Shown in pieces: positions 6,708 to 64,000 of a stretch of DNA of 64,000 nucleotides (the first letter of the stretch is position 1; each line of letters opens with the position of its first letter). Source of the DNA: Spirochaetia bacterium (GTDB taxonomy: Bacteria > Spirochaetota > Spirochaetia > SZUA-6 > Fen-1364); the NCBI GenBank assembly GCA_049519415.1, contig JBEKQU010000005.1:37504-101503 (forward strand), given 5' to 3'. Both the position numbers and the translations under genes were made by a program. The notes beneath the pieces are model-generated. The model worked only from the letters and a program-made list of their open reading frames with translations. It made no database searches and was not told the DNA's origin.

Positions 6708-8092
6708 AGGCGCGCGGGCCCGGACGCGGCGCCGAACACCGCGCGCACAGCGTCCTTGATGAGAAGCACACCGGTGAAAGACGCTCCTTCCGGCTTTTCT
6801 CCTTCGGAATTGGCCGGGCCGATCAACGTCTCAAACCCCATCTCCCGGCAGGCGCGGAATCGCTTTTCCAGCGATGGCACTGGCCTCACCTCGCCCGTGA
6901 GGCTCACCTCCCCGATCACCGCGGTGCGGACAGGGAGGGGCGCGTTGACGCGCGCCGAATACAGCGCCAGCGCAAGCGGCAGCTCGACCCCCACCTCGGC
7001 AATGCGGATCCCTCCTGCCACGTTCACGTAGATGTCGTGCTCAGCCAGGTGAAGGCCCAGGTGCTTTTCCAGGACCGCTGCCATGCGCGCCACCCTGCCG
7101 GAGTCGATCCTGTCCGAATAGATCCTGCTGATTCCGCTTTTTGCTGGCACGGTAAGCGCCTGTATCTCAATGAGCAGAGCCCGGGATCCTTCGAACACGG
7201 GCGCCACAGCCACCCCGGCCGGGATCTCCCCCTCCCGCCGGGTCAGGAAAAGGCTGGACGCGTCATCCACCTCAGCCAGTCCATTTTCTGTCATGCGGAA
7301 AAACCCGATCTCGTCGACTGACCCGAACCTGTTTTTCACGGCCTGGAGCGTCCGCACCTCGGCGCTCGCCTGCTCAAAGGCGAGCACGGTGTCCACGAGG
7401 TGCTCCACAAGCTTCGGCCCCGCGATGGCGCCCTCCTTGGTCACGTGCGCCACAAGGAAAATTCCCGCGCCGCGCGATCTGGCCCATTCCACCATTTCCT
7501 GCGTGCACACCTTGATCTGGTTCACCGTCCCGGGCAGCGCATTGACCTCCCGGGTGTAAAGGGTCTGGAGGGAATCAACAATGATCAGGACGGGCTTGAC
7601 CTGCTCCAGCACCTGCATGATCGCGGTCAGCTCCGTTTCCGCGAGCACCTCGATGCGCTGTGAGGAGACGGCCAGCCTGTCCGCGCGCATGCGAAGCTGC
7701 CCCGGGGACTCCTCGCCTGATACGTAGAGGCTCCTTCCCGGCGTTGCGATGCGCGCTGCCACCTGGAGCATCAGCGTGGACTTGCCGATGCCCGGCTCTC
7801 CGCCCACGAGCACAGAGGACCCGCGCATGAGACCGCCGCCGAGCACCCGGTTCATCTCCGCGATCCCCGTATCCATCCTCATTCCGTCACGCGTTTCGAT
7901 GGAGGAGAGGGGGATCGGCAGGGCTGTTTTCTTCCCCTTTGAGGAGGCGCTCCGGGACGCCGGCGCTTCAGCCGGAACCTCGGCGAAGCTGTTCCACGTG
8001 CCGCATTCCGGACACCGCCCGAGCCATCGCGGCTCCTGGTGCCCGCAGCCCGAACACTCGAAGAGGCTCTTCGATTTCGACACTGGGCTCAT
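6680..8092 (-). CDS. radA: DNA repair protein RadA/Sms
   Basis: N-terminal C4 zinc finger ([23 protein letters not shown]), Walker [15 protein letters not shown] motif and C-terminal Lon-like domain. 470 aa. Confidence 0.92.
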
Positions 8093-15356: not shown

Positions 15357-15452
15357 CGGCACGGATACTAAACGGATTGGAGCGTTCCGGGCAAGGGGCT
15401 GGCGCGGATGGGAAACTTGACGCTCCACACGGTACAGGCTACCTTGTGGCCC

Positions 15453-24688: not shown

Positions 24689-24724
24689 TATATACTCATT
24701 CAGGCAACAATCGAGAGGCTATCG

Positions 24725-38791: not shown

Positions 38792-38854
38792 TTCAATGCC
38801 CCGGGTGCGACCTTCCTGGCCATCCGTGGTACATTGACGGAATCGAGGTGCAAG

Positions 38855-47531: not shown

Positions 47532-48576
47532 TCAGCCCAGAAGAGGCGGTCCCCTCCGGTGACGCTCCAGGCAGGCGATGATCTTGCAGATCTGAGTCGG
47601 ATCGACGATGACGGCGAGCACCGCCATTCTGCTTCCGCACCTTGGGCAGGCCATCATGTGCAGCTTGTGAACCTTGGCCGGCAGCCGCGCCCAGGCCTTA
47701 CTGCGCGAGAGCACGCCGAGCTGGCGGTGCAGTGGCCCGCCCTGGGCCTGGTCCTTCGGGGCATCGGGGAGCAGGGGATCTTCGGCCGCCTTCCTGCCGT
47801 AGCAGTTGGCGGGCGCGTGCGATCGGAGGGCAGGCCGGTCCTTCCAAGTTCCGCGACCCCAAGCCTCCCGCCGTTTGCTTCGCAACCGAAATGTCGCCAG
47901 GAGCGACGGCGCTGCCGGCCCAGGGAGGAATACAACCCGTAGCGGCGCACGAGGTGCTTTCCCCGAGGAGGGACGTGGAGGGTCAGCTGGGCGATGAAGC
48001 CCAGCGAGGAGTACCTGCGCTGCCTGCCCTTTTGAAGTACCCCGAGGGGGAGGAGGACCAGGTGACGGCGTCCTGCTGCTCGTCCCAGCGGATGCGCTGC
48101 AGGGAAAGCGGGGCACGCACGATGTACTGACACAGCGCCTCGCGCGGTTCCTGGTCCCAGATGCGAGCACCGCTCTCGATGGAGAACCCGGAGTGCTCCC
48201 GGCCGAGGAGCTTGCGGGCGAAGTCGGGATTCAGAAAGCCCTTCTGGAGGAATAGGGCGACCACGCTGCGGCGCCAGATCTCGGAGAGGCCATCGGTGGC
48301 CCCCAGGGGGATGAAGAAGAATCGGTCGTGGCGGTCGAAGCCGCCTTCCAGGACGATGCAGTGCCAGTGGGGATGCCACACGCCGAACTCGCCGAAGCTC
48401 TGGTGGCTGGAGACCATGGCGCAGCGCAGCGTCCTGCCGGCGGCCTGGCTGTAGACGCCCTGCATCATGCGGTAGACGAGCCTGCTTAACGGATGTAAAC
48501 GAAACGCACGTGACCGCCGAATGCAAGGAGGGAATGCTTTACCTGCATGTGCCAAAGGCAGAAAAGGCCAAGGCAA
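47532..48576 (-). mobile_element. IS91-family (rolling-circle, Y2) transposase relic, frameshifted
   Basis: Three consecutive minus-strand frames carry WHPHWHCIVLEGGF...RIRWDEQQDAVTW, then an Arg-rich bridge, then the C-terminal CPRCGSRMAVLAVIVDPTQICKIIACLERH. The N-terminal roughly 100 aa are absent. Confidence 0.6.
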
Positions 48577-49984: not shown

Positions 49985-50959
49985 ATGGAAATAGAGATTC
50001 GTCCGGGCCCGAATGGCCTCGAGGGCGGCCAGCCCTGGCCAGCCGTGGCAGCCTTGCTGAAGAACGTGGAGAAGGCGAACTTCCCTACGGTGAAAGCACT
50101 GAAGCTCCTGCCGAGGCGCATGCTGGCGCGCATCATCCGCCCGATGATGGGTTCCGGGAACCGGGATATCGCCCGCGGTGTCCTCGTGACGGAGCGCTTC
50201 CACGTGGCGGGCCCGAATGGCCCAGTGCCTGTCCGCAGCTACCGTCCTGAGGGTCTGGTTTCTGGCCTGCCGGTCTTCGTCTATTACCACGGAGGTGGCT
50301 GGCTCGGTGGAACGGTGGATGTCGTCGAGAACGTCTGCAGGGCGGTGGCTGACTGCGCCCACTGTGTGGCCCTCAACGTCGACTACCGCCTGGCCCCCGA
50401 GCATCCCTTCCCTGCGGGTCTCGAGGACTGCCGGGCAGTGGCCGAATGGGCAGTCGCGCACGCGAAGAAGCTCGGCGGCGATCCCTCGAAAGTCTTCCTT
50501 GCAGGGGACTCTGCGGGGGGCAACCTGGCCACTGTCTGCACCCTGCTCGCGAAGGAGGCGAAGAGGCCGAAGTACAGGGGACAAGTTCTCCTGTATGCCG
50601 CGGTCGACCTTGGCCCCCCTGTCGGCGGACAAGGCGTGTCATGCAGCCCTCTCGGAGACATTGCTCCCAAATGGTACCTGAATGGGGACGAGAGGCTTGT
50701 GGACGACCCGCGGGTATCACCCGCCCGGGCCAAAGACCTTTCGGGTCTCCCTGCGGCCCTTGTCATCACCGCCGAGTTCTGCTTCGTCAGGGATCAGGGC
50801 GAGACCTACGCAAAGAAGCTTGCCGCGGCGGGTGTGCCCGTCAAGGCCATACGCTACAACGGGATGTGCCACGGCTTCCTCGACAATGTCGGCCTCTGGC
50901 CCGAGACCGACGCCATCATCGAGGACGTCGCGGCCTGGATCGGGGAGACCTGCAGATAG
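49985..50959 (+). CDS. alpha/beta hydrolase, HSL-family esterase/lipase
   Basis: HGGGW oxyanion motif, GDSAGG nucleophile elbow, and a DPxxD...HGF catalytic His region. Confidence 0.8.
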   Translation: MEIEIRPGPNGLEGGQPWPAVAALLKNVEKANFPTVKALKLLPRRMLARIIRPMMGSGNRDIARGVLVTERFHVAGPNGPVPVRSYRPEGLVSGLPVFVYYHGGGWLGGTVDVVENVCRAVADCAHCVALNVDYRLAPEHPFPAGLEDCRAVAEWAVAHAKKLGGDPSKVFLAGDSAGGNLATVCTLLAKEAKRPKYRGQVLLYAAVDLGPPVGGQGVSCSPLGDIAPKWYLNGDERLVDDPRVSPARAKDLSGLPAALVITAEFCFVRDQGETYAKKLAAAGVPVKAIRYNGMCHGFLDNVGLWPETDAIIEDVAAWIGETCR

Positions 50960-51235
50960 GCGGAACGGCTCACGGGTGTTGAGGGTCCTCAGGCCCTCCG
51001 CAAGGCCGGCCAGCCACGTCCCTGGGAAGCATCTTCGTCTCCATGAGCTGGATCCCCGCGATCGGCTGCGTTTTCTCCCTCACCCGCATCGCCTTTGTGG
51101 CTTGACGGTTCGAGGTTCCTATCGCATCCGATGGAAAATACTGACTAAATACGACCCCCGCTTCCGACAAAGGCGAATTCTCTTCGCGGCAGCCGACTAT
51201 CTCCAGCCACGCGGTCACGTCCTTTCGGGCGGACC

Positions 51236-51672
51236 TCACGTTTCGGCCCTGACTGCAAGATCGTCCACGATGATAAACTTCGGGCAGAGATCGCTGATAT
51301 CCCTGACGCTTCGCCACAATCCACTGCCCTCGTGCGTGCAGAAGGGCACGACCTTCATTCCTGAAAGATCGTGATTTTCCAGGAACGCGAATACTGCCAT
51401 CGGCATCGTCGCCCACCAGATAGGACAGCCGATAGAGATGACCATGTACGATACAAGGTCCGTGACGTCCTCCGCCAGCCGCGGCCGGACGTTTGCCCTC
51501 AGTTCCGTCCTCGCAACCTCGACCGCGGCATCGTAATCCTGTGGGTACGAGTCTACGGTCTCGATCCGAAAGAGGTCGCCGCCCGTGACAGCACGGATGT
51601 GCTCGGCGATAACCCTGGTGTTGCCGGAATGCGTGAAGTAACCAACGAGTGTGGACTCCTTCGCTATCCGCT
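51236..51672 (-). pseudogene. flavodoxin-family (Flavodoxin_4-like) gene lacking a canonical start codon
   Basis: The in-frame translation (ESTLVGYFTHSGNTRVIAEHI...VVPFCTHEGSGLWRS) is flavodoxin-like. There is no ATG/GTG/TTG between the upstream stop and the internal Met at 51445. Confidence 0.5.
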
Positions 51673-51710
51673 TTGTTTTCCCTCAGTTCCCTTGACGACC
51701 GGGCCACTGT

Positions 51711-52034
51711 TCAACGACCGGTCAGCCCATTCATCTGCGGCCGGCCGTTGTCGTCATAGTTGAAGCCGAACTTGGTGGCGATGACGACCCGGCCTCGGAA
51801 CGGCTGCAGGACTTCGCCCACCAGCTCTTCGTTGACGAATGGGCCATAGAGCTCCGCGGTGTCGAAAAGCGTCACGCCGCGATCCACTGCGGACCAGATC
51901 AGGGAGATCATCTCCTGCTTTTGCGCGGGCTGATCATGGCCCGGGATCAGGCCCATGCAGCCAAGGCATATGGCGCCACTTCCCATACTTCCAAGGTAAA
52001 AACCAGATCTGACATACCACGAGAAAGCAGCCAA
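51711..52034 (-). pseudogene. aldo/keto reductase N-terminal fragment
   Basis: GCMGL...AVDRGVTLFDTAELYGPFVNEELVGEVL...VVIATKFG is an AKR N-terminus that terminates after about 107 aa. Confidence 0.5.
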
Positions 52035-52131
52035 TCAGGAACCTCGGCCACGGCGCACCTCTATTCGGAATCTGCCCACATAGGCCATACTCTCTATTCA
52101 CCTGCGGAAATCCAAACCAAGGATAGGGACT

Positions 52132-53034
52132 ATGAAATCCATCAATAGCGAAGACTTTCTCAACGTCCGCATCTTGGACAACTTCTACCAGACCTCTTCG
52201 TTCTTCCCCATGCCTGTCGTTTTAATCTGCACGATCGCGGAGACGGGTCAAATGAATCTCGGACCGTACTCACTCTGCTTCCCCTACACCGTGGCCGGGG
52301 GGAGCTACCAGATGGTCTTCAACTGCCGTGATAACAGCAACACTGGAATCAATTTGCGCCGTACTGGGTTCTGCACGCTGAACTTCATCCCCGACAATCG
52401 CCGCTACATGCGCAATTGCGTGATGCTGGGCTATCCCGGAGAGACGACGGAGGAGAAGATGCGGAACTCGATTTTCACGCTCCTGCCGTCCCGCCGCACC
52501 CAGGAAGAGCGGACAGTCGGGGTCGTCTACCCCGACGTTGTGGGGCAAGCACTTCAAGTCTTCGAGTGCCATCTGGATTCCTTCGAGATCAAAGAAGAGA
52601 TTCACTCCATGCGCTCCGTTCTCACGATTGACAAGGTGTTGCTCAAGGAACGTTGGCACAGGGTTCTCCTCGAGGGCCGCAAGCCCCGGTGGGCACGACG
52701 GGCAGAGTTCCCTCCGCTGCCCGTGGACTACGGCTTTCGCAACAACGCCCATTTCTGGTTCACGAAGCACAGGCCGCCCTACCGCGAGCCGATCCCGAAG
52801 AGCAAGGCGGTTTCCGTGGATTCGGTGATGTGGGGGATCACCCGCGGAGGCTTCGCAGAGGATTTCGAGTGGAAGCCCGAGGCAGCGGCCAGGCTGGTCA
52901 ACGTGCCTCGTGTCTTCCTGGGCATGGTGCTCAAGGGCATTGCCGAAGAAGCACGGCGGGAAGGGATAACGACAATCACGCCTGAGTTCCTGGATGCGGT
53001 TCGAGACAAACGCTCTCTGGAAAAGGGGCGGTAA
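52132..53034 (+). CDS. flavin reductase-like (FMN-binding) domain protein with C-terminal extension
   Basis: N-terminal FFPMPVVLICT...motif of flavin-reductase-like domain family. The C-terminal roughly 140 aa are uncharacterized. Confidence 0.5.
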   Translation: MKSINSEDFLNVRILDNFYQTSSFFPMPVVLICTIAETGQMNLGPYSLCFPYTVAGGSYQMVFNCRDNSNTGINLRRTGFCTLNFIPDNRRYMRNCVMLGYPGETTEEKMRNSIFTLLPSRRTQEERTVGVVYPDVVGQALQVFECHLDSFEIKEEIHSMRSVLTIDKVLLKERWHRVLLEGRKPRWARRAEFPPLPVDYGFRNNAHFWFTKHRPPYREPIPKSKAVSVDSVMWGITRGGFAEDFEWKPEAAARLVNVPRVFLGMVLKGIAEEARREGITTITPEFLDAVRDKRSLEKGR

Positions 53035-53168
53035 ATCTCACACGTTAATGGCGAAAGCCACAAAGCGCGAAGCGGAAATGCTCCGAGTATCGCCAATAGC
53101 TTTCTCTGATGGGCGAAGAAGCTGCGAGCTGCGGTCGTGAGAGCCTGGTCGAGGGAAAAGTGAGTATC

Positions 53169-54407
53169 TCACTGTTCAAAATGAGTCTCATTTTTCGCAG
53201 CGTCGTCTTTGGGAAGTAGGCAATGGCTGCCTTGTCGAAGTGACCGCTGCCCTGACTTTAAGCGGAAGGATTTGTTGCGCACATCGATCCGCCGGCCACG
53301 CCACATAGCGCTGCCGCGGACCTTCGCCAGCCAAACAGAATGCGCGAAGATCGTATGGAAGAACGCAAGCGGCAGGGGGAAGAAAAGCGCAGTAAGAGGT
53401 CCAAAGCCCCCAATTCTTCGGAACATCCACCAGAGCTGGGCGGCGTACAGCGCATAGAGGCCGATTGCAGCTTTGCCGAACGCCACACGAGCCCCGCCTT
53501 CGGTCAGAGAAACGATTCCCAGGCAGCCGGTGATGACGCTCGTGGTGGCGCCCGTGAGCCACGCGCCCATCAGCGCCCGCGGCAGCGGCGGTGAGTACCC
53601 CGCCCCGGTTGCAATGTTTTTGTTCCAGCCCTCGACCATGCTTCGGATGCCGTCGGGATACATGCGGAAGTGCACAGCGCTCCGGCCGCCGAGGCACGCA
53701 ACGGGCAGGCCACGGTGGCGGGCCACTTCTCCAAGGGCGAAGTCCTCAACCACCTGGTCGCGCACTGTGGCGTGGCCGCCGCAGGAGAAGTAATCGTCCC
53801 GAGCCACGGCGATACAGGGGCCAAAGGTGCCGGCCGCGCGAAGCCGGTCGCCCAGAGGAGTAAAGGCGCCGAGGCTGCCCATCATCACGACATTGCAGAA
53901 AGCGGACAACCGTTCATATGCCCGGGGCACCTCATGGTATGGCTGCACGGACACCAGACCACCCATCTCCGCATGCGCGGCCAGCAGGCGCGCTATGGCT
54001 CCATCCTCCAGACGAACGTCGGCATCCAGGAATACCAGCAGGTCGCCCGTCGCCTCCCGCGCGCCGGTCCAGCAGGCCCAGGTCTTGCCGACCCAGCCCT
54101 CGGGCCTTGCCGGGGCCGAGATGACCCGTGCTCCGAGCCTGCGGGCCAGGGCTGCGGTGCCGTCCGTGGAGTCGTCATCCACCACGAGAATCTCGTCGGC
54201 GCGCCGGCTCTGCCGTGCCAGCGACTCCATCAGCGGAGTGAGACGCCGCTCTTCGTCACGGGCAGGAACGATCACCGAGACTCGGCGCGACTGGCACATG
54301 GTATTGATGCGCACGGCCGGACACCGCGGCACCCGCCAGAGGCAGAATATCCCCGGCAGCCATAACGCGCCGGTGTACGCAAGCAGTGCAATCTCGAGCG
54401 CGGTCAT
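53169..54407 (-). CDS. crtQ: family-2 glycosyltransferase, CrtQ-like (diaponeurosporenoate glycosyltransferase family)
   Basis: VSVIVPARDEE...DDDSTDGT...DAD...SVQPYH matches the CrtQ pattern. C-terminal TM segments. Confidence 0.7.
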   Translation of the reverse strand: MTALEIALLAYTGALWLPGIFCLWRVPRCPAVRINTMCQSRRVSVIVPARDEERRLTPLMESLARQSRRADEILVVDDDSTDGTAALARRLGARVISAPARPEGWVGKTWACWTGAREATGDLLVFLDADVRLEDGAIARLLAAHAEMGGLVSVQPYHEVPRAYERLSAFCNVVMMGSLGAFTPLGDRLRAAGTFGPCIAVARDDYFSCGGHATVRDQVVEDFALGEVARHRGLPVACLGGRSAVHFRMYPDGIRSMVEGWNKNIATGAGYSPPLPRALMGAWLTGATTSVITGCLGIVSLTEGGARVAFGKAAIGLYALYAAQLWWMFRRIGGFGPLTALFFPLPLAFFHTIFAHSVWLAKVRGSAMWRGRRIDVRNKSFRLKSGQRSLRQGSHCLLPKDDAAKNETHFEQ

Positions 54408-55504
54408 CGCGTCCTCTCATAGCGGAATGTCAGCACCGTGAGGAGAAGAAAGCCGCCGAAAAAGGCCGCCAGGGCACCAAGGTCCGTGCTCATTTCAAGC
54501 GGCCCCCGACCGAGCACCATAGAAGAGAAGACAGCGCGAGAAAAGTACAGCACTGGATTGACGACCGCAAGATCGACGAATGGAGGGGGAATGAGCTCCA
54601 CTGGCACGAACAGCCCCGAGGTGAACAGGAACAGCATGGCGAGAATCTGCGCAACCGCGACAGCCGCTTCCACCGTGGACAGCACCCCCGCGAGAAAGAA
54701 ACCTGCCGCGGCAAAGGCCGCAGTGCCCAGAAGGAAGACGGGCAGGAATGATAGGGGCGCGGCGGCGAAGCGCAGGCCAAAAACCAGCGCCCCGGTTGCC
54801 GCGAGCAGTCCGATCTGCACGAGACCGATCACAACGCGCTGCAGCACGAGACCCAGCGTGAAATGCACCCGCCGCAGGGGCGTACAGGCGAAGCGCTTCA
54901 GGAATCCTTGCCGCCGGTATCCGATGATGATCTGAGGAATGGCGAAAAAGCAGTTCAGCATCACCGAAAGGCCGAGGGTTCCGGCAAAGAGAAAGTAGAG
55001 GTACGTGAGCCGACGGCCGCCGACCGCCAGCACCTCCAGACGGTAGTCAAAGAGCGACGGACCAGCGATGAATCGCCGCACAGCCTCCACGCTCGCCTGA
55101 TCAAGGACCGAGGAGAGCACCATGCCGAAAGGCTTGTCCTTTTCCGTAACCAGGACTGTATACGCTCCCTCGCCCGTAGCGCGAGTGACAAATGCGTACA
55201 GCTTGCCCTCGGCGAGCAGCCGGCGGCCCGAGGCTTCGTCCATCCAGGCGATCTGAATGATGGAGCTCGCTTCCAGCGCGTGACGCATGACTCCCGCGGA
55301 GGTCTCGTTGGAGAATTCCAAGGCTTGTTCAATGCCGACGCGGAAGGAGCGGGGACGGAACTCGCTCTCGCCGAACAGAAAACCGAAAAGCACGAACAGG
55401 AACGCCGGAAAAAGCAGCATCCAGAACAGCCCCGCCGGCGAGCGGGCCTCCTCCAGCAGCAGTGACCCCGTCATCTTCCCGACGACCCGCCACCCGCCCG
55501 CCAT
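54404..55504 (-). CDS. ABC-2 family transporter permease
   Basis: N-terminal periplasmic segment followed by 6 TM segments. Directly downstream of an ABC ATPase on the same strand. Confidence 0.7.
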   Translation of the reverse strand: MAGGWRVVGKMTGSLLLEEARSPAGLFWMLLFPAFLFVLFGFLFGESEFRPRSFRVGIEQALEFSNETSAGVMRHALEASSIIQIAWMDEASGRRLLAEGKLYAFVTRATGEGAYTVLVTEKDKPFGMVLSSVLDQASVEAVRRFIAGPSLFDYRLEVLAVGGRRLTYLYFLFAGTLGLSVMLNCFFAIPQIIIGYRRQGFLKRFACTPLRRVHFTLGLVLQRVVIGLVQIGLLAATGALVFGLRFAAAPLSFLPVFLLGTAAFAAAGFFLAGVLSTVEAAVAVAQILAMLFLFTSGLFVPVELIPPPFVDLAVVNPVLYFSRAVFSSMVLGRGPLEMSTDLGALAAFFGGFLLLTVLTFRYERTR

Positions 55505-56451
55505 CAGCGCGCCTCCGTCGCGGGCTCTTCGCTGGGCCACGCGCGACCCGTGCGAAAAAGGTACACGTCTTCGAGGGTCGGTGCGTGCACATCAAGCTCG
55601 CGCACCGATGTGCCGGCAGCCCGGGCAATCTCGAAGATCTGGTGGAGGTCGTCCTCGAACCGGACGCTTGCCACGCGCGCGCTGGCCCCGCTGACCACGG
55701 CGTTCGGAAATGTTGCCGCGATCCTTTCCGTCAAGCCGGGTGGCTCGGCTTCGAAGGTGAAAATGATCAGACCGGCAAGGCCTGAGGCCCCCACCAAGGC
55801 GGCAGGCGAGTCAAGAGCGGCGATCGTTCCCCGGTAGAGGATGGCCACCCGATCGGACAAACGCTCCGCTTCCTCCAGGTAGTGGGTGGTGAGCACCACC
55901 GTCTTGCCCCGGGCGCGCAGGTCCTGAATGATGCCCCACACCTCCCGGCGCACGGCAGGGTCAAGACCCGTGGTCGGCTCGTCGAGGAACACGAGATCGG
56001 GGTCGTTGACGATCGCCAGGGCAACGAGAAGGCGCTTGCGCTGCCCGCCGGACAGTTCGCGCACCAGCGCACGGCGGGGCGGGTCCAGGGATACACGGTC
56101 GAGCGCCTCCCGAGGTTCCAGGCCCCGGGAGTAGAATGATCTGAAGAGGGCAAGCACCTCCATGGGCCTAAGGTTCTGCATTACCTCGGCCTCCTGAAGC
56201 TGCACGCCGATTGATTCGCGCACGCGCAGGTCGCTCGGTCGGCCGCCCAGCACCCGAAAGGTGCCGCCATCGTGCCTCCGGATTCCTTCAAGAATCTCCA
56301 TGATTGTCGTCTTTCCGGACCCATTGGGTCCGACGATCGTGAAGATCTCCCCCCGGGGGACCGTGAAACTCACACCGCGCAGCGCCGGCAGGCCCTTGTA
56401 GGACTTCCGAAGGTCGTGTACCTCAAGGGCGAAGCTGTTCGAGCTATCCAT
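55504..56451 (-). CDS. ABC transporter ATP-binding protein
   Basis: Walker A GPNGSGKTT, ABC signature LSGGQRKR, Walker B LVFLDEPTTGLD and H-loop TTHYLEE. Confidence 0.85.
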   Translation of the reverse strand: MDSSNSFALEVHDLRKSYKGLPALRGVSFTVPRGEIFTIVGPNGSGKTTIMEILEGIRRHDGGTFRVLGGRPSDLRVRESIGVQLQEAEVMQNLRPMEVLALFRSFYSRGLEPREALDRVSLDPPRRALVRELSGGQRKRLLVALAIVNDPDLVFLDEPTTGLDPAVRREVWGIIQDLRARGKTVVLTTHYLEEAERLSDRVAILYRGTIAALDSPAALVGASGLAGLIIFTFEAEPPGLTERIAATFPNAVVSGASARVASVRFEDDLHQIFEIARAAGTSVRELDVHAPTLEDVYLFRTGRAWPSEEPATEAR

Positions 56452-56520
56452 GGCCGGGGAGCATACAATAGAGCGCCGATGGCGTACAGACTTGACCCGG
56501 CGACGGGCCCGGAGTAATTT

Positions 56521-58401
56521 TTGCGAATGCAGCGCGGCGACTATGACGTCATCGTCGTTGGAGCGGGGGTCGGCGGCCTGACTGCGGCGAGCCTGCTTGC
56601 GAAAAGCGGCCTTGCCGTCCTGGTTGTCGACAGGAACTACATGCCCGGCGGCGCCCTCGGCTCCTTTCGGCGCGACGGGATAACTCACGACCTGGGCGCA
56701 GCCATGCTCTTCGGCTTTGGAGAGCACGGGTTCAGCCCGCACCGGTTCCTCATGAACGAGTTGGAGGAGCCGGTGACCGTGATCCGTCACCGTGCCCTGT
56801 ACCGGCTCAACTACGGCGAGGACCCCATTGTGTTCTGGCCGGAGATGGATCGCTACCTCGGCGAGCTTGCCCGGGTCTTTCCAGCCGAACGGGCCGAGCT
56901 GGCCGCTTTCTATCAAGCAATTGCCGAGCTTTTCGAGAACGTCATCCGGGCCGACCCCGTGTACGTGTCTCCCTCGGAGATGCGGCCTCAGGATCTTCGC
57001 GGGCAGTTCTTCTCCCGGCCGCTGCAGCAGCTGGCCACCCTCCGGTTGCTCTCCACCTCTGCGGAGCGCCTTATCCGCCGGCACGTACGTTCCGAGCGGG
57101 CGATCAGGTTCTTCGACAAGCTTACCTCAACCTACTGCTACACCACCATGGCCGAGACGCCGGCAATACTTGCGGCAACGATGTTCGTCGACAATCACGC
57201 CGGCGGCAGCTATTATCCCGTCGGGTCGCCTGCCATCCTGGCGGGCAGGCTCGAGCGCTCAATCGAGCGCCACGGCGGGACCTTCCGCTATGAGACTGAA
57301 GTGACAGGCATACTCTTCGACGACGGCGGCCGGGTCAGGGGCGTATACACCGCAGGCGGAGAGGAAATCACTGCCCCCCAGGTCGTGTATGCGGGGGCGA
57401 TCCATCCACTCTTCCGTAAGCTGCTGCCTGCGGCGCGCGTGAGGGCCCGGGAGCGCGCCCGGATCGAATCGCTGGTCCTGACGCACCCCAGCATCGTGCT
57501 CTACGGTCAAGTGAAAGCGGACGCCGTGCCCAACGGCACCTTTCCTGTGGAGATGTTCGTAGACAACAAGACGACCCTCGATGAGAGCGAGGTCACGCTG
57601 TACCTGTCGTCGCTGGAGGAGCCGAACCTTGCCCCCGAGGGCACATACGTCTTTACGCTTATTGGCCCCTCGTTCTCCAACTGGCCCGCCCCGGGCGACA
57701 CCGCCTACCAGGGTCCGGCCTACCTCGAGCGCAAAGAGGCCGAGGCCCGGCGGATGCTCGCCATTCTCGAGCGTCGTATGCCGGGGTTTTCCAGAGGGAT
57801 CGTGCGCTGGGAGATCGGAACCCCTTCCACTATTGAGCGCTACCTCGGCAAGCCGGGAGGCACAGTGGCTGGGCCCAAGCAGGCAATCGGACAGGAGCTG
57901 CTGCGCCGTCCCCATGCCAGGACCCGGTGGCCGGGGCTGTACCTTGCAGGAGAATCGACGGTGATGGGCACGGGCACGCCGGCGGTGACTGTCTCAGGCA
58001 TCAGCGCTGCCGATGTTGCGCTGCGCGACCGGGGAATGCCGGAATACCGGTGGCGCCCGGGGCAACGCGATTTTGTCACCGTGGTTGAAGGACCGGTGCC
58101 ACGCCTGCCTGCGCCAAAAACGGCACCGGGCACCGCCTCATTCTGCGGGTGGTGCGAGATCGCAACGTGCCGGGCTGCGTGCCCCTCCCGCATCGATATC
58201 CGAGGCGTGCTCCGGCGCATCGAAATGGAGAACTTCGAAGGTGCTCGGCGCAGGCTCGCTGAAACAGGTGGCAGGCCGCTGCCCTGTCCCGGCTGTGCGG
58301 GACACCCATGCGAGCAGGCCTGCCAGCGCACCAGGTGGGCAGGAAATCCGGTTCCCATCGTGGAAAACCTTGTCTGGGCGGACAGGCAGACTCCACCGTG
58401 A
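56521..58401 (+). CDS. phytoene-desaturase-family FAD oxidoreductase (CrtI/CrtN/CrtP-like) with Cys-rich C-terminal extension
   Basis: N-terminal YDVIVVGAGVGGLTAA FAD site and a CrtI-family body. The C-terminal roughly 100 aa carry CxxCx4Cx3CP and CPGCx3PCx3C motifs. Confidence 0.75.
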   Translation: MRMQRGDYDVIVVGAGVGGLTAASLLAKSGLAVLVVDRNYMPGGALGSFRRDGITHDLGAAMLFGFGEHGFSPHRFLMNELEEPVTVIRHRALYRLNYGEDPIVFWPEMDRYLGELARVFPAERAELAAFYQAIAELFENVIRADPVYVSPSEMRPQDLRGQFFSRPLQQLATLRLLSTSAERLIRRHVRSERAIRFFDKLTSTYCYTTMAETPAILAATMFVDNHAGGSYYPVGSPAILAGRLERSIERHGGTFRYETEVTGILFDDGGRVRGVYTAGGEEITAPQVVYAGAIHPLFRKLLPAARVRARERARIESLVLTHPSIVLYGQVKADAVPNGTFPVEMFVDNKTTLDESEVTLYLSSLEEPNLAPEGTYVFTLIGPSFSNWPAPGDTAYQGPAYLERKEAEARRMLAILERRMPGFSRGIVRWEIGTPSTIERYLGKPGGTVAGPKQAIGQELLRRPHARTRWPGLYLAGESTVMGTGTPAVTVSGISAADVALRDRGMPEYRWRPGQRDFVTVVEGPVPRLPAPKTAPGTASFCGWCEIATCRAACPSRIDIRGVLRRIEMENFEGARRRLAETGGRPLPCPGCAGHPCEQACQRTRWAGNPVPIVENLVWADRQTPP

Positions 58402-58883
58402 CCACCGCTCAATTCCCCGTCGGCTGGAACATCCTGCTTAACGCTGGAGCCTGGTTTGTGATACACGTCGGAGCCTCATTCTTCACGAGCCGGCTTCCCC
58501 TGGACTCGTTTGATACAGCGGGCTGGCTCTACCGTACTAGGAGCTGGGAGCTCGGCGGCAGGCTCTATGAACGGGTCTTCTTCATCCGTGGATGGAAATG
58601 GATGCTGCCGGACGGTGCGGCGGCTTTCCGATCAGGGTTTCGCAAACGGCATATGACCGGGCGTTCACCGGAGTACTGTCGGACCTTTGCGAGGGAGACC
58701 TGCCGGGCGGAACTCTCTCACTGGCTCGTATTCATGCTCGTGCCGCTGTTCTTTCTCTGGGATCCATGGTGGGTGGCCTGGCCGATGGTGCCCTACGCAG
58801 TTGCAGTGAACGCTCCCTGCATCATGGCACAGCGATACAATCGGCCACGCCTCGCTGCGCTGGCTGCGCGCGGCGCTATCTGA
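58399..58883 (+). CDS. crtO: glycosyl-4,4'-diaponeurosporenoate acyltransferase
   Basis: Strong match to CrtO conserved blocks: FIRGWKWMLPDG, RAELSHW and QRYNRPRL. GTG start overlapping the upstream stop. Confidence 0.8.
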
Positions 58884-58930
58884 AAAAGAGAGTTACCCTC
58901 CATGTACCGTTGTAAACGGGGGAAGAAGAC

Positions 58931-59458
58931 ATGAAGTCCTGGATTGCATCGGTGGGAATCTTGGCTATGGCCGCTCACGCCATGGGTCAAGGCGACGCGC
59001 TCCCAATTTTCCCGAAATCGTTGGGAAAGAACCTGAATGGCCGCGCACTGTCACTGCCGGACGATTTCGCAGGCCGTGCGAACCTCGTATTCATCGCCTT
59101 CGAGATGCGCCAACAACAGGAAGTCGACACCTGTAAGTCATTCACACAGGGGATGCGTCAGGCCCATGAATGGCTGCACGCCTATGAGCTTCCCACGATC
59201 GGCAGAGGCTACGGCCTCATACGCGGTTTCATCGACGGCGGGATGAGATCCGGCATTCCGGACAGCGAGACCCGGGCGTCCACTATTACCCTCTATCTCG
59301 ACGTCGATGCGTTTGCACGCGCGCTCGGAATCGAATCCACCGGTACCATCACCATCCTGCTGGTGAAATCCTCGGGAGAGATCATGGCCCATGCTTCCGG
59401 ACCCTATTCCAAGACAGCGGCAGCTCCACTGATCTCCGCGCTGGATGCCATGAAATGA
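58931..59458 (+). CDS. secreted hypothetical protein
   Basis: Signal peptide (ILAMAAHAMGQG). No catalytic motif. Confidence 0.45.
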   Translation: MKSWIASVGILAMAAHAMGQGDALPIFPKSLGKNLNGRALSLPDDFAGRANLVFIAFEMRQQQEVDTCKSFTQGMRQAHEWLHAYELPTIGRGYGLIRGFIDGGMRSGIPDSETRASTITLYLDVDAFARALGIESTGTITILLVKSSGEIMAHASGPYSKTAAAPLISALDAMK

Positions 59459-59556
59459 AGCATTGCAGAGGCAGTAATGGATTCATCCGCTCAGCCACCT
59501 TGGCACTTCCACCGGAGCGTCGCCCACTAACGTAGACGTGCAGCCGCCGGTATCTC

Positions 59557-60650
59557 TCAGCGCAAGTCCTTGATCACTTTATCGGCGGCCAGTTTGCCCG
59601 TCAGAATCGAGACTGGCAGACCAGAGGGACTGAATGACCACTGCCCTGCCTGGCAGACGTCGGGTATCGGCGTAAGGATCGACTTCGCGACCGAAGGAAG
59701 GTCGGAAATCGCCGGCAGGGGCTTGTTTGTCAAGGCCCAACTGGTGATTGCGCCGTCGGAATTGCCTGTTCTCTCTTCCAGCGTAAGGGGGCCCGAAGTG
59801 AAAGCGTCGATGGTCGATCCCCTGGGTCCGGGGAAAATGGTGGAGCCCAGCACCTCGATGATGCAGTTGCTGCACAGCTGCTGGTACTCCTCGTGCCAAC
59901 CCATCTCCCGGATATGCCTGTGGAGCGAATGCTCCATCAGCGTGCTGATGGCAAAACCCGTTTTCCCCGGGGGGCCAAGGCGGGATCATGCAAGGCCGGG
60001 CAGGAGATTTCATAGCTCGTAAGCTCGAAGAACCGCCTCGTCCAGGCTAGATGAGCCGGGCCTTGTCCTGTGTGTACCCGCCCTTCGCGGGATCGTCGCC
60101 GGTGAGCTCGCGAAGGTCAAGGGCTGACAGCCCAATTGTGTAAGTCGTGCAGAAAAGATGCGCGGTGGCTCTTTCCGAGAAGCAGCTTTTGTCGATGTCC
60201 AGCGCAAGGTACAGTGTGAAAACCGAGTCTCCTCCCCTTTTGTCGAGAAGCGCAGCCTGCCTCTCTTCCGCGCTCCTCCGCACCTTCCCGTTCGGAATCG
60301 ATCCTGCATCGAGGATGCGGTAGAACGTCTTCTGGTCCGCTGCCCAGACGAGCTTCCGCCAGGAGCACTCCCGGCCACGCGCGTCGAGATGCGTCCGTCT
60401 TCCCGGGGCGACGCCGACGATGCCGCCCCTCGGGTAGCGGTAGTCGAGATAGAGGCCGAAATAGCTTAACGCAAAATGGGCCGGGGTCTTCTTGAAGAAA
60501 TGCTGGTCGATGATGTCGATCAGCGCCTGACTGCCGGATAGTTTCGCAAGGTGCTCGTCGACGGGGAGAAGCAGCTTGCGGACCTTCGGCATGGTGAGGA
60601 TGTAGCGCAGCAGCCATGGCAGCATCGTCCTGATGATATCGTGGGGATCC
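59557..60650 (-). pseudogene. second phytoene-desaturase-family oxidoreductase, frameshifted and N-terminally truncated
   Basis: The C-terminal CrtI-like part is split between two frames (59557-59937 and 60047-60650). No FAD-binding N-terminus. Confidence 0.5.
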
Positions 60651-60758
60651 TTCCTGGGCTCTAGGAAGAGCGGATTGTCGATCCCATAGAATACATCCAT
60701 GTAGCCGATGACCCGGCGCACCTCGTCGATCTGTCGTCCAGAGCTATCGAGGGACTGG

Positions 60759-61412
60759 TTACCTCGTCCGCCGCGTGAGGAGCAGGGAACGCAGCGCCGC
60801 CACCGCGATACCGACGACGACGACCGCAGCGGCGACCACGGCAACGGTCCATACCTTGGGTGCAACGCCAAACCGGTTCCACCCAGCTTTCACGAGCAGC
60901 GCCGTCACGTTGGCGATCATGGCGACGGTGATCCATCCCAGGTAAACGCTGAAGGGAATGCGGGCGAACCACCTCTCTGCGGGACTCGCAGAAGCCCTTC
61001 CCATGCCCAGCCGAAGGTAGATGCCGATGAGGCAGGTGAGCAGGGCGAGCATGGCAAGGAGGGAGAAGCCGACCTGCCGCCAGTGCCAGAGTAGCAGCCA
61101 TCCGATGTTCGCCGCGGAGGAGAGGACCATCAGCCACCCGATCCTCTCCACGGACGCCGGCGCTTCCCTCCGGGTGGAAAACAACCCTCGCGACTGGGCC
61201 ACGGTGAAAAGAAGCAGGAAGATGTAGATCACCCCCCAGATGGAGAAAGTAAGGCCTGATGGAACGAAAAGATTTGGAATGGCATCTGAGAGAACTCCGG
61301 TCTGGCTGCCGTTGAGCCCGATGGTTGAGGCGAAGGTGTTCACGACGAGAGTGGCCAGGAAGACCACGATGTTGACGGCCTGCAGGACTCGCGCCGATTG
61401 CCTGGTCTCCAT
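60759..61412 (-). CDS. tspO: TspO/MBR (CrtK-like) tryptophan-rich membrane protein
   Basis: LNGSQTGVLSDAIPNLFVPSGLTFSIWGVIYIFLL matches the TspO signature. Five TM segments. Confidence 0.65.
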   Translation of the reverse strand: METRQSARVLQAVNIVVFLATLVVNTFASTIGLNGSQTGVLSDAIPNLFVPSGLTFSIWGVIYIFLLLFTVAQSRGLFSTRREAPASVERIGWLMVLSSAANIGWLLLWHWRQVGFSLLAMLALLTCLIGIYLRLGMGRASASPAERWFARIPFSVYLGWITVAMIANVTALLVKAGWNRFGVAPKVWTVAVVAAAVVVVGIAVAALRSLLLTRRTR

Positions 61413-61548
61413 GCGAGCACACTATCACCTGGGCGGCCGCACTGCCACCCCACTTCGTCCGCGCGCTCGAGCCGATGCGGCCGGATGTTTGCAATAAGGC
61501 GCCATTCACGTTAATCTCGTTCATCGGGCCGCCGGGCAGACTGTCCCA

Positions 61549-62616
61549 ATGGCACACGCGCTACGAAAGCTCACCCACCCACTCCTCTTTCAGGGCAGCA
61601 CAGCGAAAAAGCGATATTTCGAAGGGTGGTACTTTAAACAGGTGTCGGCGGATGGCAGATCTGTTTTTGCGCTCATACCCGGAATCTCCCTGTCCCCACG
61701 GGGTTCGCATTCGTTCGTGCAGGTGATCGACGGAACCACGGGTGCCACACGCTGGTTCTCCTACCCGCTCGACGCGTTTCGCTGGTCACGGAACCGGTTC
61801 GAGATCCAGGTGGGCGAGAACCGGTTCAGCGATACGTCGGCGGATGTCCAGCTCACTGACGGTGCAGGTTCGATCGAGGCCCACCTGCGCTACCATGGCC
61901 TGACCCCCCTGCCGTTTTCCCTTGGAAGTCCCGGCGTCATGGGGCGCTACACGTATGCGCCCTTTATGGAATGCTACCATGCAATTGGCAGCCTGGATCA
62001 CCGGGTTGAGGGCAGCGTCACGGTTGACGGAAGCAGGTTCGACTTCTCGGATGGTCGTGGATATATCGAGAAAGACTGGGGGACTTCTTTTCCTCGCGCC
62101 TGGATCTGGGCGCAGTCAAACAGCTTCGAAGAGCCGGGCACGTCGTTCGTGTTCTCACTTGCGCGAATCCCATGGCTCGGGCGTTTCTTTCCGGGATTCT
62201 TCTCCCTGCTTCTCGAGCGAGGACGGCTTCATCGAATGGCAACGTACACAGGGGCGCGCATCGTGGCAGCGCGGTTGAGCGGACGGGAGCTGGCGCTGGA
62301 CATCAGCGACCGCGAATCGGTCATCTTGCTGAGGGCAGAGCGCTCACACGAAGGAGTGCTCCTGGCACCAGAGCAGGGAGCCATGGATCGACGCATTGGG
62401 GAGAGCATCGACGCGCGCCTGCATGTCACCATGACAGACCTATCCGGGAAGGTGCTCTTCAACGGGTCGGGATCGGCGGCAGGCTTGGAGGTCGTCGGGG
62501 ACATGTCTATACTCGGAGTGCTGACAGAGGGCGCTCTCAATTCGCAGGCGCAGAATCCGGACTCTGCTCCCACCTCGGGCATGCCAGGCAAGACAAGCGA
62601 GCCGCCGTTTCCATGA
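61549..62616 (+). CDS. tocopherol-cyclase-family protein
   Basis: RYFEGWYFKQV motif and 'IEKDWG...WIWAQSN' resemble the VTE1/SXD1 cyclase family. Confidence 0.6.
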   Translation: MAHALRKLTHPLLFQGSTAKKRYFEGWYFKQVSADGRSVFALIPGISLSPRGSHSFVQVIDGTTGATRWFSYPLDAFRWSRNRFEIQVGENRFSDTSADVQLTDGAGSIEAHLRYHGLTPLPFSLGSPGVMGRYTYAPFMECYHAIGSLDHRVEGSVTVDGSRFDFSDGRGYIEKDWGTSFPRAWIWAQSNSFEEPGTSFVFSLARIPWLGRFFPGFFSLLLERGRLHRMATYTGARIVAARLSGRELALDISDRESVILLRAERSHEGVLLAPEQGAMDRRIGESIDARLHVTMTDLSGKVLFNGSGSAAGLEVVGDMSILGVLTEGALNSQAQNPDSAPTSGMPGKTSEPPFP

Positions 62617-63172
62617 GAACGGATATCTGGAAGCGGGTACCGACGGCCGAACATTCGAACGCTGATGCACTTGCACTTCTAGGCGTGGGACACTAGATTT
62701 TCAATATGAATGCCATATACGAATTTAAAGGCTAGCCGCAGCAGTTGCGACCTCATAGCGCGCGATGGTGTTGGGACGGCGGTGGGGTGCCCCTACTGGA
62801 GTGGCAATTGCGCGGAGTTGTTTTCCGCTGGCCGTTGTGGTTGAATAATGGACAAGGGCACGAAAACCTTGGTGGTCATCAATCTCTGCCTGGCGTTCTA
62901 CAACGTCGGAACAATATGAGCGAACGAGGTCGACATCTTCCGCTCGTGGAAGCTCCTCGACAACGTTACGTTCCATAAGGTGCACGCGGTCCACTGGCAC
63001 AAGATCCCGTTCTGGATCTTCATCCCCTACGGACTATTCTTCGCTCTCTCGACTCTCTTGATTTGGTGCCACCCGGCGGGCTCGCCGACATGGGCCATCT
63101 GTCGTGCTCGTTAACGCTTCCGCCGGCTTCCATCCGGATCCATGTGGGGCCTACGAGGGGCACGATCGGAGA

Positions 63173-63804
63173 ATGGAGGATTCCATGGAAACTGTCGAGC
63201 TCCCTAAACCAAGGTTTGGCCGAGGCCGCACCACCCAGTCGGTCTTTCTGAAGCGAAGAACGGTCCGCGAAATCGGCAACAAGAAGCTCTCTCTGCAGAT
63301 GTTGTCGAATCTTCTGTGGTCCGCCTGCGGGGTAAACCGGAAGCAAGTTCCCTTCGGCCTTCCGGGAATAGCGGCTGCTTCGGCCAGCAATTCGCAGGAA
63401 ATCGATCTCTATGTTGCCTTGGAGTCTGGCGTCTACTTCTCCGAGAGGGCGGATCATCGTCTGGCGCTGGTGGCTGGGGGGATTTTCGCTTGTTCGCGCT
63501 CGGACAGGCTCAGGGGAAGACTGGGTCAAAGGCTCCCGTACGCCTGATCTACGTCGTGGACATCGACAAATTCAGCAAGACCTGCTATCAGGAGCCGGGG
63601 CTGAAGACCCCCGAGACGCAGAAGGCTTATTACTATGTGGATACAGGCTTGATCGCGGGAAATATTTATCTTTTCGCGGCTTCGCACGGCCTAGCGGCAT
63701 GGTTTCACAACTGTAACAAGGCGGAGCTTTCGAAAATCCTGAAACTCAGGTCCGATCAGCATGTGCTCTTCGGTCAGACCGTCGGCTATCAAGAAAAGAA
63801 CTAG
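63173..63804 (+). pseudogene. nitroreductase-family protein with apparent frameshift near 63470-63530
   Basis: The N-terminal part (63173-63460) and the C-terminal part (63540-63804; YYYVDTGLIAGNIYLFAASHGLAA) are in different frames. Confidence 0.5.
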
Positions 63805-63841
63805 CCCTACAGCGCCCCTCATCCCGGCGATGTAGGAGAAG

Positions 63842-64000
63842 ATGGCGATCGAAGCAGCACTGGCTCGAGCGCTGCCGCTATTTCTGGCCCTGACTTTTTC
63901 GCAGCCTCGAAAAGGCTACTCTGCAATTTACTCCTCTCAAATGGAGGACTTCCACGCCATTTTTGGTGTCACCATGAGTGTCACCCTGAGAGGATACAAG
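63842..64000 (+). CDS. start of an unidentified gene running off the window
   Basis: ATG-initiated ORF (MAIEAALARALPLF...) that continues to the window end. Confidence 0.25.
   Translation, partial: MAIEAALARALPLFLALTFSQPRKGYSAIYSSQMEDFHAIFGVTMSVTLRGYK

Follow-up and report, generated by a model that had tools for sequence, protein, structure and literature searches.

Flavin adenine dinucleotide (FAD) enzymes of the CrtISO/CrtH and RetSat type use reduced flavin to act on the C=C bonds of polyenes, and the CrtC-CruC-CruD pathways of green sulfur bacteria, myxobacteria and Salinibacter yield hydroxy-carotenoid glucoside esters. In the crtOPQMN operon of Staphylococcus aureus and the C30 operons of planctomycetes and Bacilli, a chain is modified, then glycosylated, and its sugar is then acylated (PMC9907078). 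Clostridia and Fusobacteria hold carotenoid-type amino oxidases, with no CrtM, HpnD or Sqs and with unclear function (PMC9907078); orphan crtN-like open reading frames (ORFs) occur in gut Bacteroides and C. perfringens, and the obligate anaerobe Eubacterium limosum carries functional crtM/crtN (PMC11611032). Here we analyse a locus at positions 53,169 to 63,804 of a 64,000-nucleotide stretch of contig JBEKQU010000005.1 from a Spirochaetia bacterium (the window, meaning that whole stretch), which a first-pass annotation had called a staphyloxanthin-like carotenoid glycosyl-ester cluster. Our best explanation, held tentatively and at a little short of an even chance, is that anaerobes share a conserved lipid-tailoring module, evolutionarily related to carotenoid glycoside-ester operons, of which this locus is a rearranged and partly decayed copy.

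Like the crtOPQMN and C30 operons, the module combines CrtO, a membrane glycosyltransferase of family GT2 and two CrtI-superfamily flavoenzymes, and it would follow the same logic of chain modification, glycosylation and acylation. It differs from crtOPQMN in having no CrtM/HpnCDE/Sqs, CrtN, CrtP or aldehyde dehydrogenase (AldH), in a flavoenzyme fused to two [4Fe-4S] clusters, in the TspO-like gene of its operon, in its strictly anaerobic hosts and in having no known pigment. The window flavoenzyme finds its best, full-length profile match in the CrtISO/CrtH and RetSat clade (TIGR02730), but it scores below half the equivalog cutoff, carries a Fer4_20 di-cluster domain and sits among GT2, CrtO and ATP-binding cassette (ABC-2) genes rather than carotenoid backbone genes. 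As in the CrtC-CruC-CruD pathways, a protein with an AttH/CrtC fold, here a tocopherol-cyclase-family protein (TocCyc), would be followed by GT2 and an acyltransferase; TocCyc, however, belongs to Pfam Tocopherol_cycl and not to CrtC, its linkage is occasional, and backbone genes lie nearby only in L091 (loci of relatives carry L numbers throughout). A Fer4_20 two-[4Fe-4S] wire also occurs in another anaerobe flavoprotein, the putative isoprene reductase IsrA of Acetobacterium wieringae, for which hydrogenation of an isoprenoid C=C bond has been proposed (PMC10134865). IsrA was ruled out as a member of the same family: it is a GltD/NfnB-type Pyr_redox_2 protein of 901 aa with HypA/HypB partners and no GT2/CrtO context, outside the CrtI superfamily. 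Literature searches on CrtO/PF18927 in anaerobes, and on phytoene desaturase with glycolipid operons in obligate anaerobes, returned no description of the module, which matches both published remarks on orphan carotenoid-type oxidases in anaerobes.

A flavoenzyme, glycosyltransferase and acyltransferase module in anaerobes

The flavoenzyme gene had been annotated as a CrtI-family oxidase. Among curated profiles its product is matched best by carotenoid isomerase rather than by a CrtN/CrtP-type family (TIGR02730, 253.6 bits; CrtD, 164 bits; crtI_fam, 128 bits), with residues 8-498 aligned to positions 1-486 of the 493 in TIGR02730. Neither the TIGR02730 cutoff for a CrtISO/CrtH equivalog (586.9 bits) nor that of crtI_fam (238 bits) is reached, and the gene is the only intact one of the CrtI superfamily in the window. 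On these scores the enzyme is a homologue of CrtISO/CrtH yet no equivalog, with an extra Fe-S domain. The eight cysteines of its two-[4Fe-4S] wire, arranged in two CxxCx4Cx3C motifs, are invariant across the aligned flavoenzymes (14 homologues). In the PDB, its nearest neighbours by sequence are 4rep and 4dgk, both CrtI-type enzymes.

Scanning the flavoenzyme alignment against one genome per GTDB species gave at least 456 relatives, and the locus counts below rest on the best 80 of these 456. All 80 belong to anaerobe lineages: Spirochaetota, Clostridia (Acetobacterium and Clostridium among them), Coriobacteriaceae, Dehalococcoidia, Anaerolineae, Bacteroidales and Caldisericota. The commonest same-strand operon order is TspO-like, CrtISO-FeS (the flavoenzyme), CrtI2 (a second CrtI-family flavoenzyme), GT2 and CrtO. 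GT2 together with CrtO stands beside the flavoenzyme in 13 of the 80 loci, GT2 in 15, CrtI2 in 11 and the TspO-like gene in six; the carriers come from five phyla (Bacillota, Actinomycetota, Chloroflexota, Caldisericota and Spirochaetota). Judged from these neighbourhoods, the clustering of GT2, CrtO and the flavoenzyme exceeds chance. When all neighbouring ORFs were clustered, no other conserved family and no synthase emerged. A PlsY-like protein (PF02660) occupies the acyltransferase position in a Coriobacteriaceae and a Caldisericaceae locus (L040 and L028), and an MBOAT gene is added in the Clostridiaceae locus L061. A short-chain dehydrogenase gene recurs as a neighbour of the flavoenzyme in 13 mostly spirochaete loci.

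Gene order varies among the closest relatives of the window locus. L012 (88% identical) has the units ABC-GT2, CrtISO-FeS-CrtO, TspO-like and TocCyc, without the secreted protein or the CrtI2 remnant of the window; L173 (86%) keeps a near full-length CrtI2 and has its copy of the secreted-protein gene elsewhere in the locus; in L174 (85%), GT2-CrtO is divergent from the flavoenzyme and there are no ABC genes.

One type of synthase-less amino oxidase of anaerobes can now be described as a CrtISO/RetSat-like protein with an iron-sulfur wire, found repeatedly beside GT2, CrtO, CrtI2 and TspO-like genes. The module offers a testable operon for what is probably a new class of acylated glycolipid made without oxygen, and cultivated carriers exist: genes for the flavoenzyme, CrtI2 and the TspO-like protein are found in Acetobacterium bakii DSM 8239, and the flavoenzyme with an ABC-2 transporter in Clostridium celatum DSM 1785 and C. 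disporicum.

Intact and decayed genes of the window copy

ORF listing together with Pfam and NCBIfam profile searches recovered every gene of the first-pass annotation at or very near the place it had been given (Table 1). Start and stop codons overlap between the ABC ATPase and permease genes, between permease and GT2, and between flavoenzyme and CrtO. The flavoenzyme and the membrane protein each have a 100% identical counterpart in a metagenome-assembled genome at NCBI ('Spirochaetia bacterium'), and the window contig also turns up in JGI metagenomes and among further ENA and Logan assemblies.

Table 1. Features of the locus in window coordinates, with the main profile or alignment evidence
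Feature	Coordinates	Strand	Evidence
GT2 lipid glycosyltransferase, CrtQ/HpnB/CruG-like, C-terminal membrane region	53169-54407	(-)	PF00535 80 bits, PF13506 48 bits
ABC-2 family permease, DrrB-like	54404-55504	(-)	PF12698 102 bits, PF01061 70 bits
ABC transporter ATPase, DrrA/NodI-like	55504-56451	(-)	PF00005 87 bits, TIGR01188 drrA 209 bits
Divergent intergenic region, sigma-70-like promoter candidate for the flavoenzyme-CrtO operon	56452-56526	.	four-sequence alignment
CrtISO/RetSat-like FAD enzyme with C-terminal two-[4Fe-4S] Fer4_20 domain, 624 aa	56527-58401	(+)	PF01593, PF13450, PF14691
CrtO-family membrane acyltransferase	58398-58883	(+)	PF18927 108.7 bits (cutoff 27.3)
175-aa protein, signal-peptide-like N-terminus, lineage-specific passenger	58931-59458	(+)	no family match
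Pseudogene of second CrtI-family flavoenzyme (CrtI2)	59560-60748	(-)	tblastn with intact CrtI2 proteins
TspO-like membrane protein, 217 aa, C-terminus altered and shortened	60759-61412	(-)	
Tocopherol-cyclase-family protein (TocCyc), AttH/CrtC-like double beta-barrel, facultative accessory	61549-62616	(+)	PF14249
Nitroreductase-family pseudogene, single frameshift; probably outside the module	63104-63804	(+)	PF00881 in two frames

The glycosyltransferase, annotated as CrtQ-like, keeps its GT2 assignment in profile searches. Its full-length NCBIfam matches, HpnB (97 bits) and CruG (81 bits), miss their cutoffs by a wide margin; it also matches GT21, the ceramide/diacylglycerol glucosyltransferase type, and no CrtQ-specific profile is among its matches. 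Its start overlaps the stop of the permease gene, and the embedded ABC-2 exporter pair that had been proposed is indeed present and translationally coupled to GT2. The string ATPase-permease-GT2 is common to the window, L012 and L173; the permease gene is also called in the JGI locus L001. As in DrrAB-type exporters, a DrrA-like ATPase (PF00005) and an ABC-2 permease (PF12698/PF01061) are encoded by adjacent, overlapping genes; since the equivalog scores fall under cutoff (TIGR01188, 209 against 312 bits; TIGR01247, 35 against 223 bits), DrrAB membership is to be read at family level only. The enzyme has a second conserved context in six Clostridium-type loci, which lack GT2 and CrtO and have genes for a DrrA-like ATPase and two ABC-2 permeases after that of the flavoenzyme. 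Because the arrangement is independent in these and in the spirochaetes, the link between ABC-2 transporter and flavoenzyme arose at least twice. In each of the six loci (L050, L058, L067, L068, L078 and L086, from C. celatum, C. disporicum and relatives), this string lies at about 11.8-15 kb.

The acyltransferase call, which the first-pass annotation had based on a QRYNRPRL block, is borne out: the PF18927 match lies well above the gathering threshold and spans profile positions 3-123 of 123, and the QRYNRPR, PDG and PC motifs are invariant in 10 homologues. The CrtO start overlaps the flavoenzyme stop. The secreted protein that follows is a real gene, with a signal peptide judged by eye only; no Pfam or NCBIfam family matches it, and it is not a module-wide component, being missing from L012 and from the 80 genome loci and recurring only in the close relative L173, as a 50%-identical copy about 4 kb from CrtO.

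Upstream of the flavoenzyme, an alignment of the window with L012, L173 and L174, read by eye, shows an invariant TTGACC and, after 17 nt, a TAnnnT box about 6 nt before the ATG. This spacing suggests that the flavoenzyme transcript may be leaderless or near-leaderless. An automatic promoter and terminator scan did not flag the element, and its counts were at the level of shuffled sequence. In the same four sequences, an invariant GGGAGCATA adjoins the start of the divergent ABC ATPase gene. An Rfam search of 50000-64000 found no RNA family.

Two module genes have decayed. The CrtI-family pseudogene of the first-pass annotation is real: in tblastn, intact CrtI2 proteins of 529-566 aa align to it in three frames over residues ~117-538 of 538 (117-374 in frame -1 at 60748-60053, 373-404 in frame -3, and 392-538 in frame -2 at 60000-59560). 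The remnant has lost the N-terminal ~116 residues including the FAD fold and has an internal gap of ~24 aa, whereas intact CrtI2 is an Amino_oxidase protein (PF01593, 78 bits). The neighbouring gene had been named TspO/CrtK. A five-helix TSPO fold agrees with the name, but PF03073 (TspO/MBR) gives no match at E<10 for either the window protein or a 276-aa homologue in L053, in contrast to the canonical TspO of L141 (91 bits), and the gene is shortened. A profile of the TspO-like family found nothing relevant among PDB sequences. The window protein aligns only to family residues 1-189, which leaves it without the three C-terminal helices. Cut off at about residue 189, the TspO-like gene abuts the CrtI2 remnant, starting at about residue 117, on the same strand, and such a junction would be expected from a deletion in the middle of a TspO-like, CrtISO-FeS, CrtI2 string.

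The annotated nitroreductase is likewise a family member, but it is frameshifted and not conserved with the module. It is split between frames at 63104-63547 and 63316-63804, with PF00881 positions 3-45 in the first and 103-167 in the second, and the frame appears by eye to change at a G-run near 63470-63480; the split is identical in independent assemblies (L001-L003). In L091 the homologue is intact and has TspO-like and TocCyc genes close by. An aldo-keto reductase (AKR) gene at 50970-52034 (-) is also an apparent pseudogene, broken into two or more ORFs (107 aa and 245 aa); elsewhere AKR genes are intact, flanking TocCyc in L009 and L090 and present also in L173.

Against the 88%-identical L012, the intact genes have ratios of nonsynonymous to synonymous substitution rates (dN/dS) of 0.09-0.24: 0.09 for the flavoenzyme, 0.11 for the permease (84% identical), 0.18 for the ABC ATPase, 0.23 for CrtO and 0.24 for GT2 (70% identical), with TocCyc in the same range. 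Given this purifying selection and the conserved promoter-like element, the intact genes are probably functional. The window locus is a rearranged, partly decayed copy of the module whose intact genes remain under purifying selection. A transposase-like ORF upstream, and a recombinase fragment and toxin-antitoxin genes downstream, place the cluster in a rearranging region. The upstream ORF is of Y2-transposase type (47654-48526 (-)); past the window end lie a tyrosine-recombinase-like fragment, recognised by eye (L001 12892-13191), and HepT/MNT toxin-antitoxin genes.

The tocopherol-cyclase gene, described earlier as an unusual cyclase, keeps its family name on a PF14249 match of 62.4 bits (cutoff 26.6) that covers profile positions 147-335 only, and many of its 4129 homologues are named tocopherol cyclase; its fold, however, is of AttH/CrtC type, and it is loosely linked, standing beside the module in few lineages. 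The fold-comparison table lists the pericyclases CghA/Fsa2 at 22-23, AttH (2ich) at 21.6, the CrtC-domain kievitone hydratase (7a0q) at 20.2 and a 25-phosphosteroid lyase (9fzn) at 18.2. Because several of these relatives add or eliminate at a tertiary isoprenoid carbon, action on an isoprenoid C=C bond is mechanistically plausible, and TocCyc may plausibly be an optional hydratase or cyclase of predicted activity. No prenylquinol pathway genes were seen in the window. TocCyc lies within the module operon in L040, L084 and L141, adjoins the module in L012 and, in the distant L104, is paired divergently with a TspO-like gene. The operonic cases include a Coriobacteriaceae locus, which runs CrtISO-FeS, PlsY-like, GT2, TocCyc, and an Oscillospiraceae locus. 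Three homologue neighbourhoods and 80 metagenome loci showed no conserved TocCyc partners, and the flavoenzyme was present in 0 of the 80; an obligate place in the module was rejected for TocCyc on this ground.

One relative, L091 (JGI 3300035696 Ga0374055_0021467), encodes a TocCyc 76% identical to that of the window. Directly after it, at 11425-12690 (+), comes a bona fide CrtI-type phytoene desaturase gene (crtI_fam 349 bits, cutoff 238; CrtID 489 bits on the truncated protein), inside which the contig ends. Upstream of the desaturase lie TspO-like, intact nitroreductase, NmrA and DUF1295 genes.

Candidate products and rival readings

The first-pass annotation saw no crtM/crtB, and this holds for the 64-kb window and 10 kb beyond. 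The SQS_PSY family (CrtM/HpnCDE/Sqs) has no match among the scanned window ORFs or in the 10 kb past the window end, and a crude search with the SQS/PSY signature YxxxVAGxVG gave zero hits in the window and 89 loci. The ORF at 63842, left unidentified in the first-pass annotation, encodes a 131-aa orphan and not CrtM; behind it come an integrase fragment, a patatin gene and toxin-antitoxin genes. A tblastn search with the CrtI-type protein of L091 found no canonical CrtI/CrtN in the window, and in the window and loci other than L091 canonical CrtI yielded only weak matches to the N-terminal FAD fold. Among the scanned window ORFs there was no aldehyde dehydrogenase, polyprenyl synthase or canonical desaturase. 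With no synthase or canonical desaturase present, the locus cannot build a hydrocarbon backbone, and the chain must therefore come from another locus or from outside the cell.

Gene identities, the domain fusion, module conservation, CrtI2 decay, the TspO-like truncation and purifying selection on intact genes are observed. These genes would fit the following scheme, in which we infer substrate class, redox direction, step order and export. The CrtISO/RetSat-like flavoenzyme, associated with the membrane, would take or give electrons through its fused two-[4Fe-4S] wire and act without O2 on C=C bonds of a long isoprenoid or polyene chain, by saturation, isomerisation or desaturation. GT2 would add a sugar to the lipid, and the CrtO-family protein, or elsewhere a substitute acyltransferase, would acylate that sugar. 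The DrrAB-type ABC-2 transporter of this lineage may move product or substrate across or out of the membrane, and TocCyc, where present, might protonate an isoprenoid double bond, leading to hydration or cyclisation and possibly making the hydroxyl for glycosylation.

The staphyloxanthin-like label does not survive, as CrtM, CrtN, CrtP and AldH are missing from the 64-kb window and the 10 kb past its end. A C30 pathway of that kind, with a carotenoic acid glycosyl-esterified by CrtQ and acylated by CrtO and with crtM (or hpnCDE/sqs), crtN, crtP and aldH located elsewhere, is in our view very unlikely. CrtO does belong to its family, GT2 and two CrtI-family genes make up the crtOPQMN composition minus crtM (PMC9907078), and E. 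limosum is an anaerobe with functional crtM/crtN (PMC11611032), but no trans-IPPS head-to-head synthase of any kind occurs in Clostridia that have such amino oxidases (PMC9907078). The 74 kb around the locus, and the 89 loci searched for the SQS/PSY signature, speak against it too, as does an intact flavoenzyme that is CrtISO-like and bears Fe-S clusters, unlike CrtN and CrtP. Moreover, the host appears to be an anaerobe, whereas CrtP-type terminal oxidation requires O2. A C40 hydroxy-carotenoid glycoside ester made by CrtC-CruC-CruD logic, such as OH-chlorobactene glucoside laurate or the hydroxytorulene glucosides, is unlikely but deserves more weight. TocCyc would be a 1,2-hydratase or cyclase, GT2 would act on the tertiary OH, CrtO would acylate, and crtB/crtI would lie elsewhere. 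Pigmented Spirochaeta with hydroxytorulene glucosides are known, which counts in its favour, and so do the CrtC/AttH hydratase fold of TocCyc, the TocCyc-desaturase pair of L091 with TspO-like and nitroreductase genes near, the light-associated genes (heliorhodopsin, DUF1722/YbgA-like) that adjoin the module in relatives, and the reports of tocopherol cyclase and SOUL as heliorhodopsin neighbours. The L091 cluster, however, is seen only in part, cut by the contig end; CrtB and CrtI are missing from the window, from L012 and from all 80 genome loci; many lineages with the module are believed to have no carotenoid synthases; and TocCyc is missing from most module loci.

The chain need not be an isoprenoid. 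The module might remodel ordinary acyl lipids, the flavoenzyme saturating, isomerising or desaturating acyl chains and GT2 with the acyltransferase giving an acylated glycolipid, which we regard as distinctly unlikely. UfaD, a CrtI-family enzyme of furan fatty acid synthesis, sets a precedent. The PlsY-like (PF02660) or MBOAT genes in the acyltransferase position would fit, as would the GT21 match of GT2, the L141 string, which joins DegV (fatty-acid binding), PlsY-like and DUF1295 genes with heliorhodopsin, TspO-like and GT2 genes, and the lipid remodelling proposed in the heliorhodopsin literature (10.1101/2021.02.16.431466). The strongest, full-length similarity of the flavoenzyme is nevertheless to carotenoid isomerases and desaturases, the best full-length matches of GT2 are terpenoid-associated (HpnB, CruG), and the only characterised CrtO member acts on a carotenoid glycoside. 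It is highly improbable that no pathway operates at all and that the locus is a non-functional relic, a rearranging genomic island that has gathered unrelated genes and pseudogenes. Four decayed genes in or near the locus (CrtI2, the truncated TspO-like gene, nitroreductase and the AKR fragments at 50970-52034), the transposase-like ORF upstream, the integrase fragment and toxin-antitoxin genes just downstream, and the variable gene order among 77-88% identical relatives would suit such a relic; yet GT2, both ABC genes, the flavoenzyme, CrtO and TocCyc are intact and constrained relative to L012, the start/stop overlaps and the promoter are conserved, and the core module recurs in five phyla.

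We therefore return to a lipid-tailoring module. An acylated glycosyl terpenoid-type lipid, possibly exported, as the first-pass annotation had suggested, is reasonable at class level because the CrtO and GT2 assignments hold, because their unit with CrtI-family flavoenzymes is conserved and because the exporter is coupled to GT2. Several observations weigh against the module as a working glycolipid pathway. The flavoenzyme stands alone in L090 and L175 (77-78% identical), most of the 80 loci have neither GT2 nor CrtO, and the flavoenzyme may for these reasons work independently of glycosylation. No module member has a known substrate or product, GT2 scores far below the cutoff of every curated terpenoid glycosyltransferase profile, and the TocCyc family has no conserved neighbourhood in 86 loci. 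With CrtI2 and part of the TspO-like gene lost, the pathway in the window may itself be incomplete. Were the product merely a carotenoid glycoside ester, the result would still be a useful correction: the set of enzymes is not that of the staphyloxanthin pathway, and the copy in the window has in part decayed. Of more interest than this decayed copy are the conservation of the module among anaerobes and its link to heliorhodopsin.

Heliorhodopsin-bearing relatives and the surrounding window

In L173 (ENA ERZ25039480 contig_128092), a heliorhodopsin gene (PF18761) at 5836-6639 (-) lies directly downstream of the ABC ATPase, ABC-2 permease and GT2 genes, and next come a DUF1722/YbgA-like and an NmrA/3-beta-HSD-like gene; heliorhodopsin and these two are missing from the window and L012. 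A string of nine same-strand genes in the distant contig L141 (Ga0114918_10010050, 188-7652 (+)) begins with TocCyc, a canonical TspO_MBR, a 180-aa protein without assignment and DUF1295, and continues with DegV, a PlsY-like gene, heliorhodopsin (317 bits), a TspO-like gene and GT2, where the contig ends. A hidden Markov model search over all loci and the window found heliorhodopsin only in L141 and L173. A SOUL gene lies inside the module in L045.

The E. coli DUF523/DUF1722 homologue is co-transcribed with photolyase and would be another light-related association. DUF523/DUF1722 (YbgA/2-thiouracil desulfurase-like) genes recur near the module or TocCyc in L173 (4873-5823), L174 (6654-7394), L079 (~9395-9685), L075 (3791-4714) and L168 (3817-4734).

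Reported heliorhodopsin neighbours include DegV, DUF1295, DUF2177, SOUL, tocopherol cyclase and ABC transporters, and remodelling of lipid membranes and an unknown retinal source have been proposed for heliorhodopsin (Chazan et al. 2021, 10.1101/2021.02.16.431466). L141, L173 and L045 share neighbour gene families with these surroundings; the CrtISO-FeS/GT2/CrtO module, however, is undescribed there, and most module loci, the window included, have no heliorhodopsin. Heliorhodopsins are reported to be essentially restricted to monoderms, with one exception in Spirochaetota (10.1101/2021.02.01.429150), and the L173 gene would be another Spirochaetota case if the contig is rightly placed by its 85-86% protein identity to the window. 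The links are few but cross lineages and point to a lipid function related to light or oxidative stress. Through the heliorhodopsin, DegV, DUF1295 and tocopherol-cyclase genes that it sometimes includes, the module is connected with the question of heliorhodopsin function.

A bolder proposal, which we rate as quite improbable, is that anaerobes and monoderm-type bacteria use the module as a pathway to polyene or retinoid lipids that needs no oxygen and has a functional tie to heliorhodopsin. On that proposal the module would supply or tailor a chromophore or an antenna or photoprotective glycolipid, or would be lipid remodelling controlled by heliorhodopsin, and TocCyc, DUF1295, DegV, PlsY-like and ABC-2 genes would be its accessories. 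It would account both for the orphan 'CrtN-like' amino oxidases of Clostridia, Fusobacteria and Bacteroides and for the missing retinal or lipid partner of heliorhodopsin.

The rest of the window holds sugar utilisation genes, a GH10 glycoside hydrolase, RadA, NadE and a sigma-70 factor, together with a PFL-like glycyl-radical enzyme (24647-27112 (+), 417 bits) and a RACo-type reductive activator of corrinoid proteins (13563-15428 (-)). The last two mark an anaerobic lifestyle, and from this gene content the host, a peat spirochaete, looks like a saccharolytic anaerobe. Just before the locus, a 300-aa protein (52132-53034 (+)) weakly matches PCP_red at its C-terminus (28 bits, cutoff 32.5); it is 86% conserved in L173 and missing from L012. 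Further upstream, a 907-aa MalT-TPR/LuxR regulator (35817-38540) precedes a predicted surface protein of 1557 aa (38834-43507 (+)) with six FlgD-Ig repeats, a CHU_C-type domain and a C-terminal OmpA domain.

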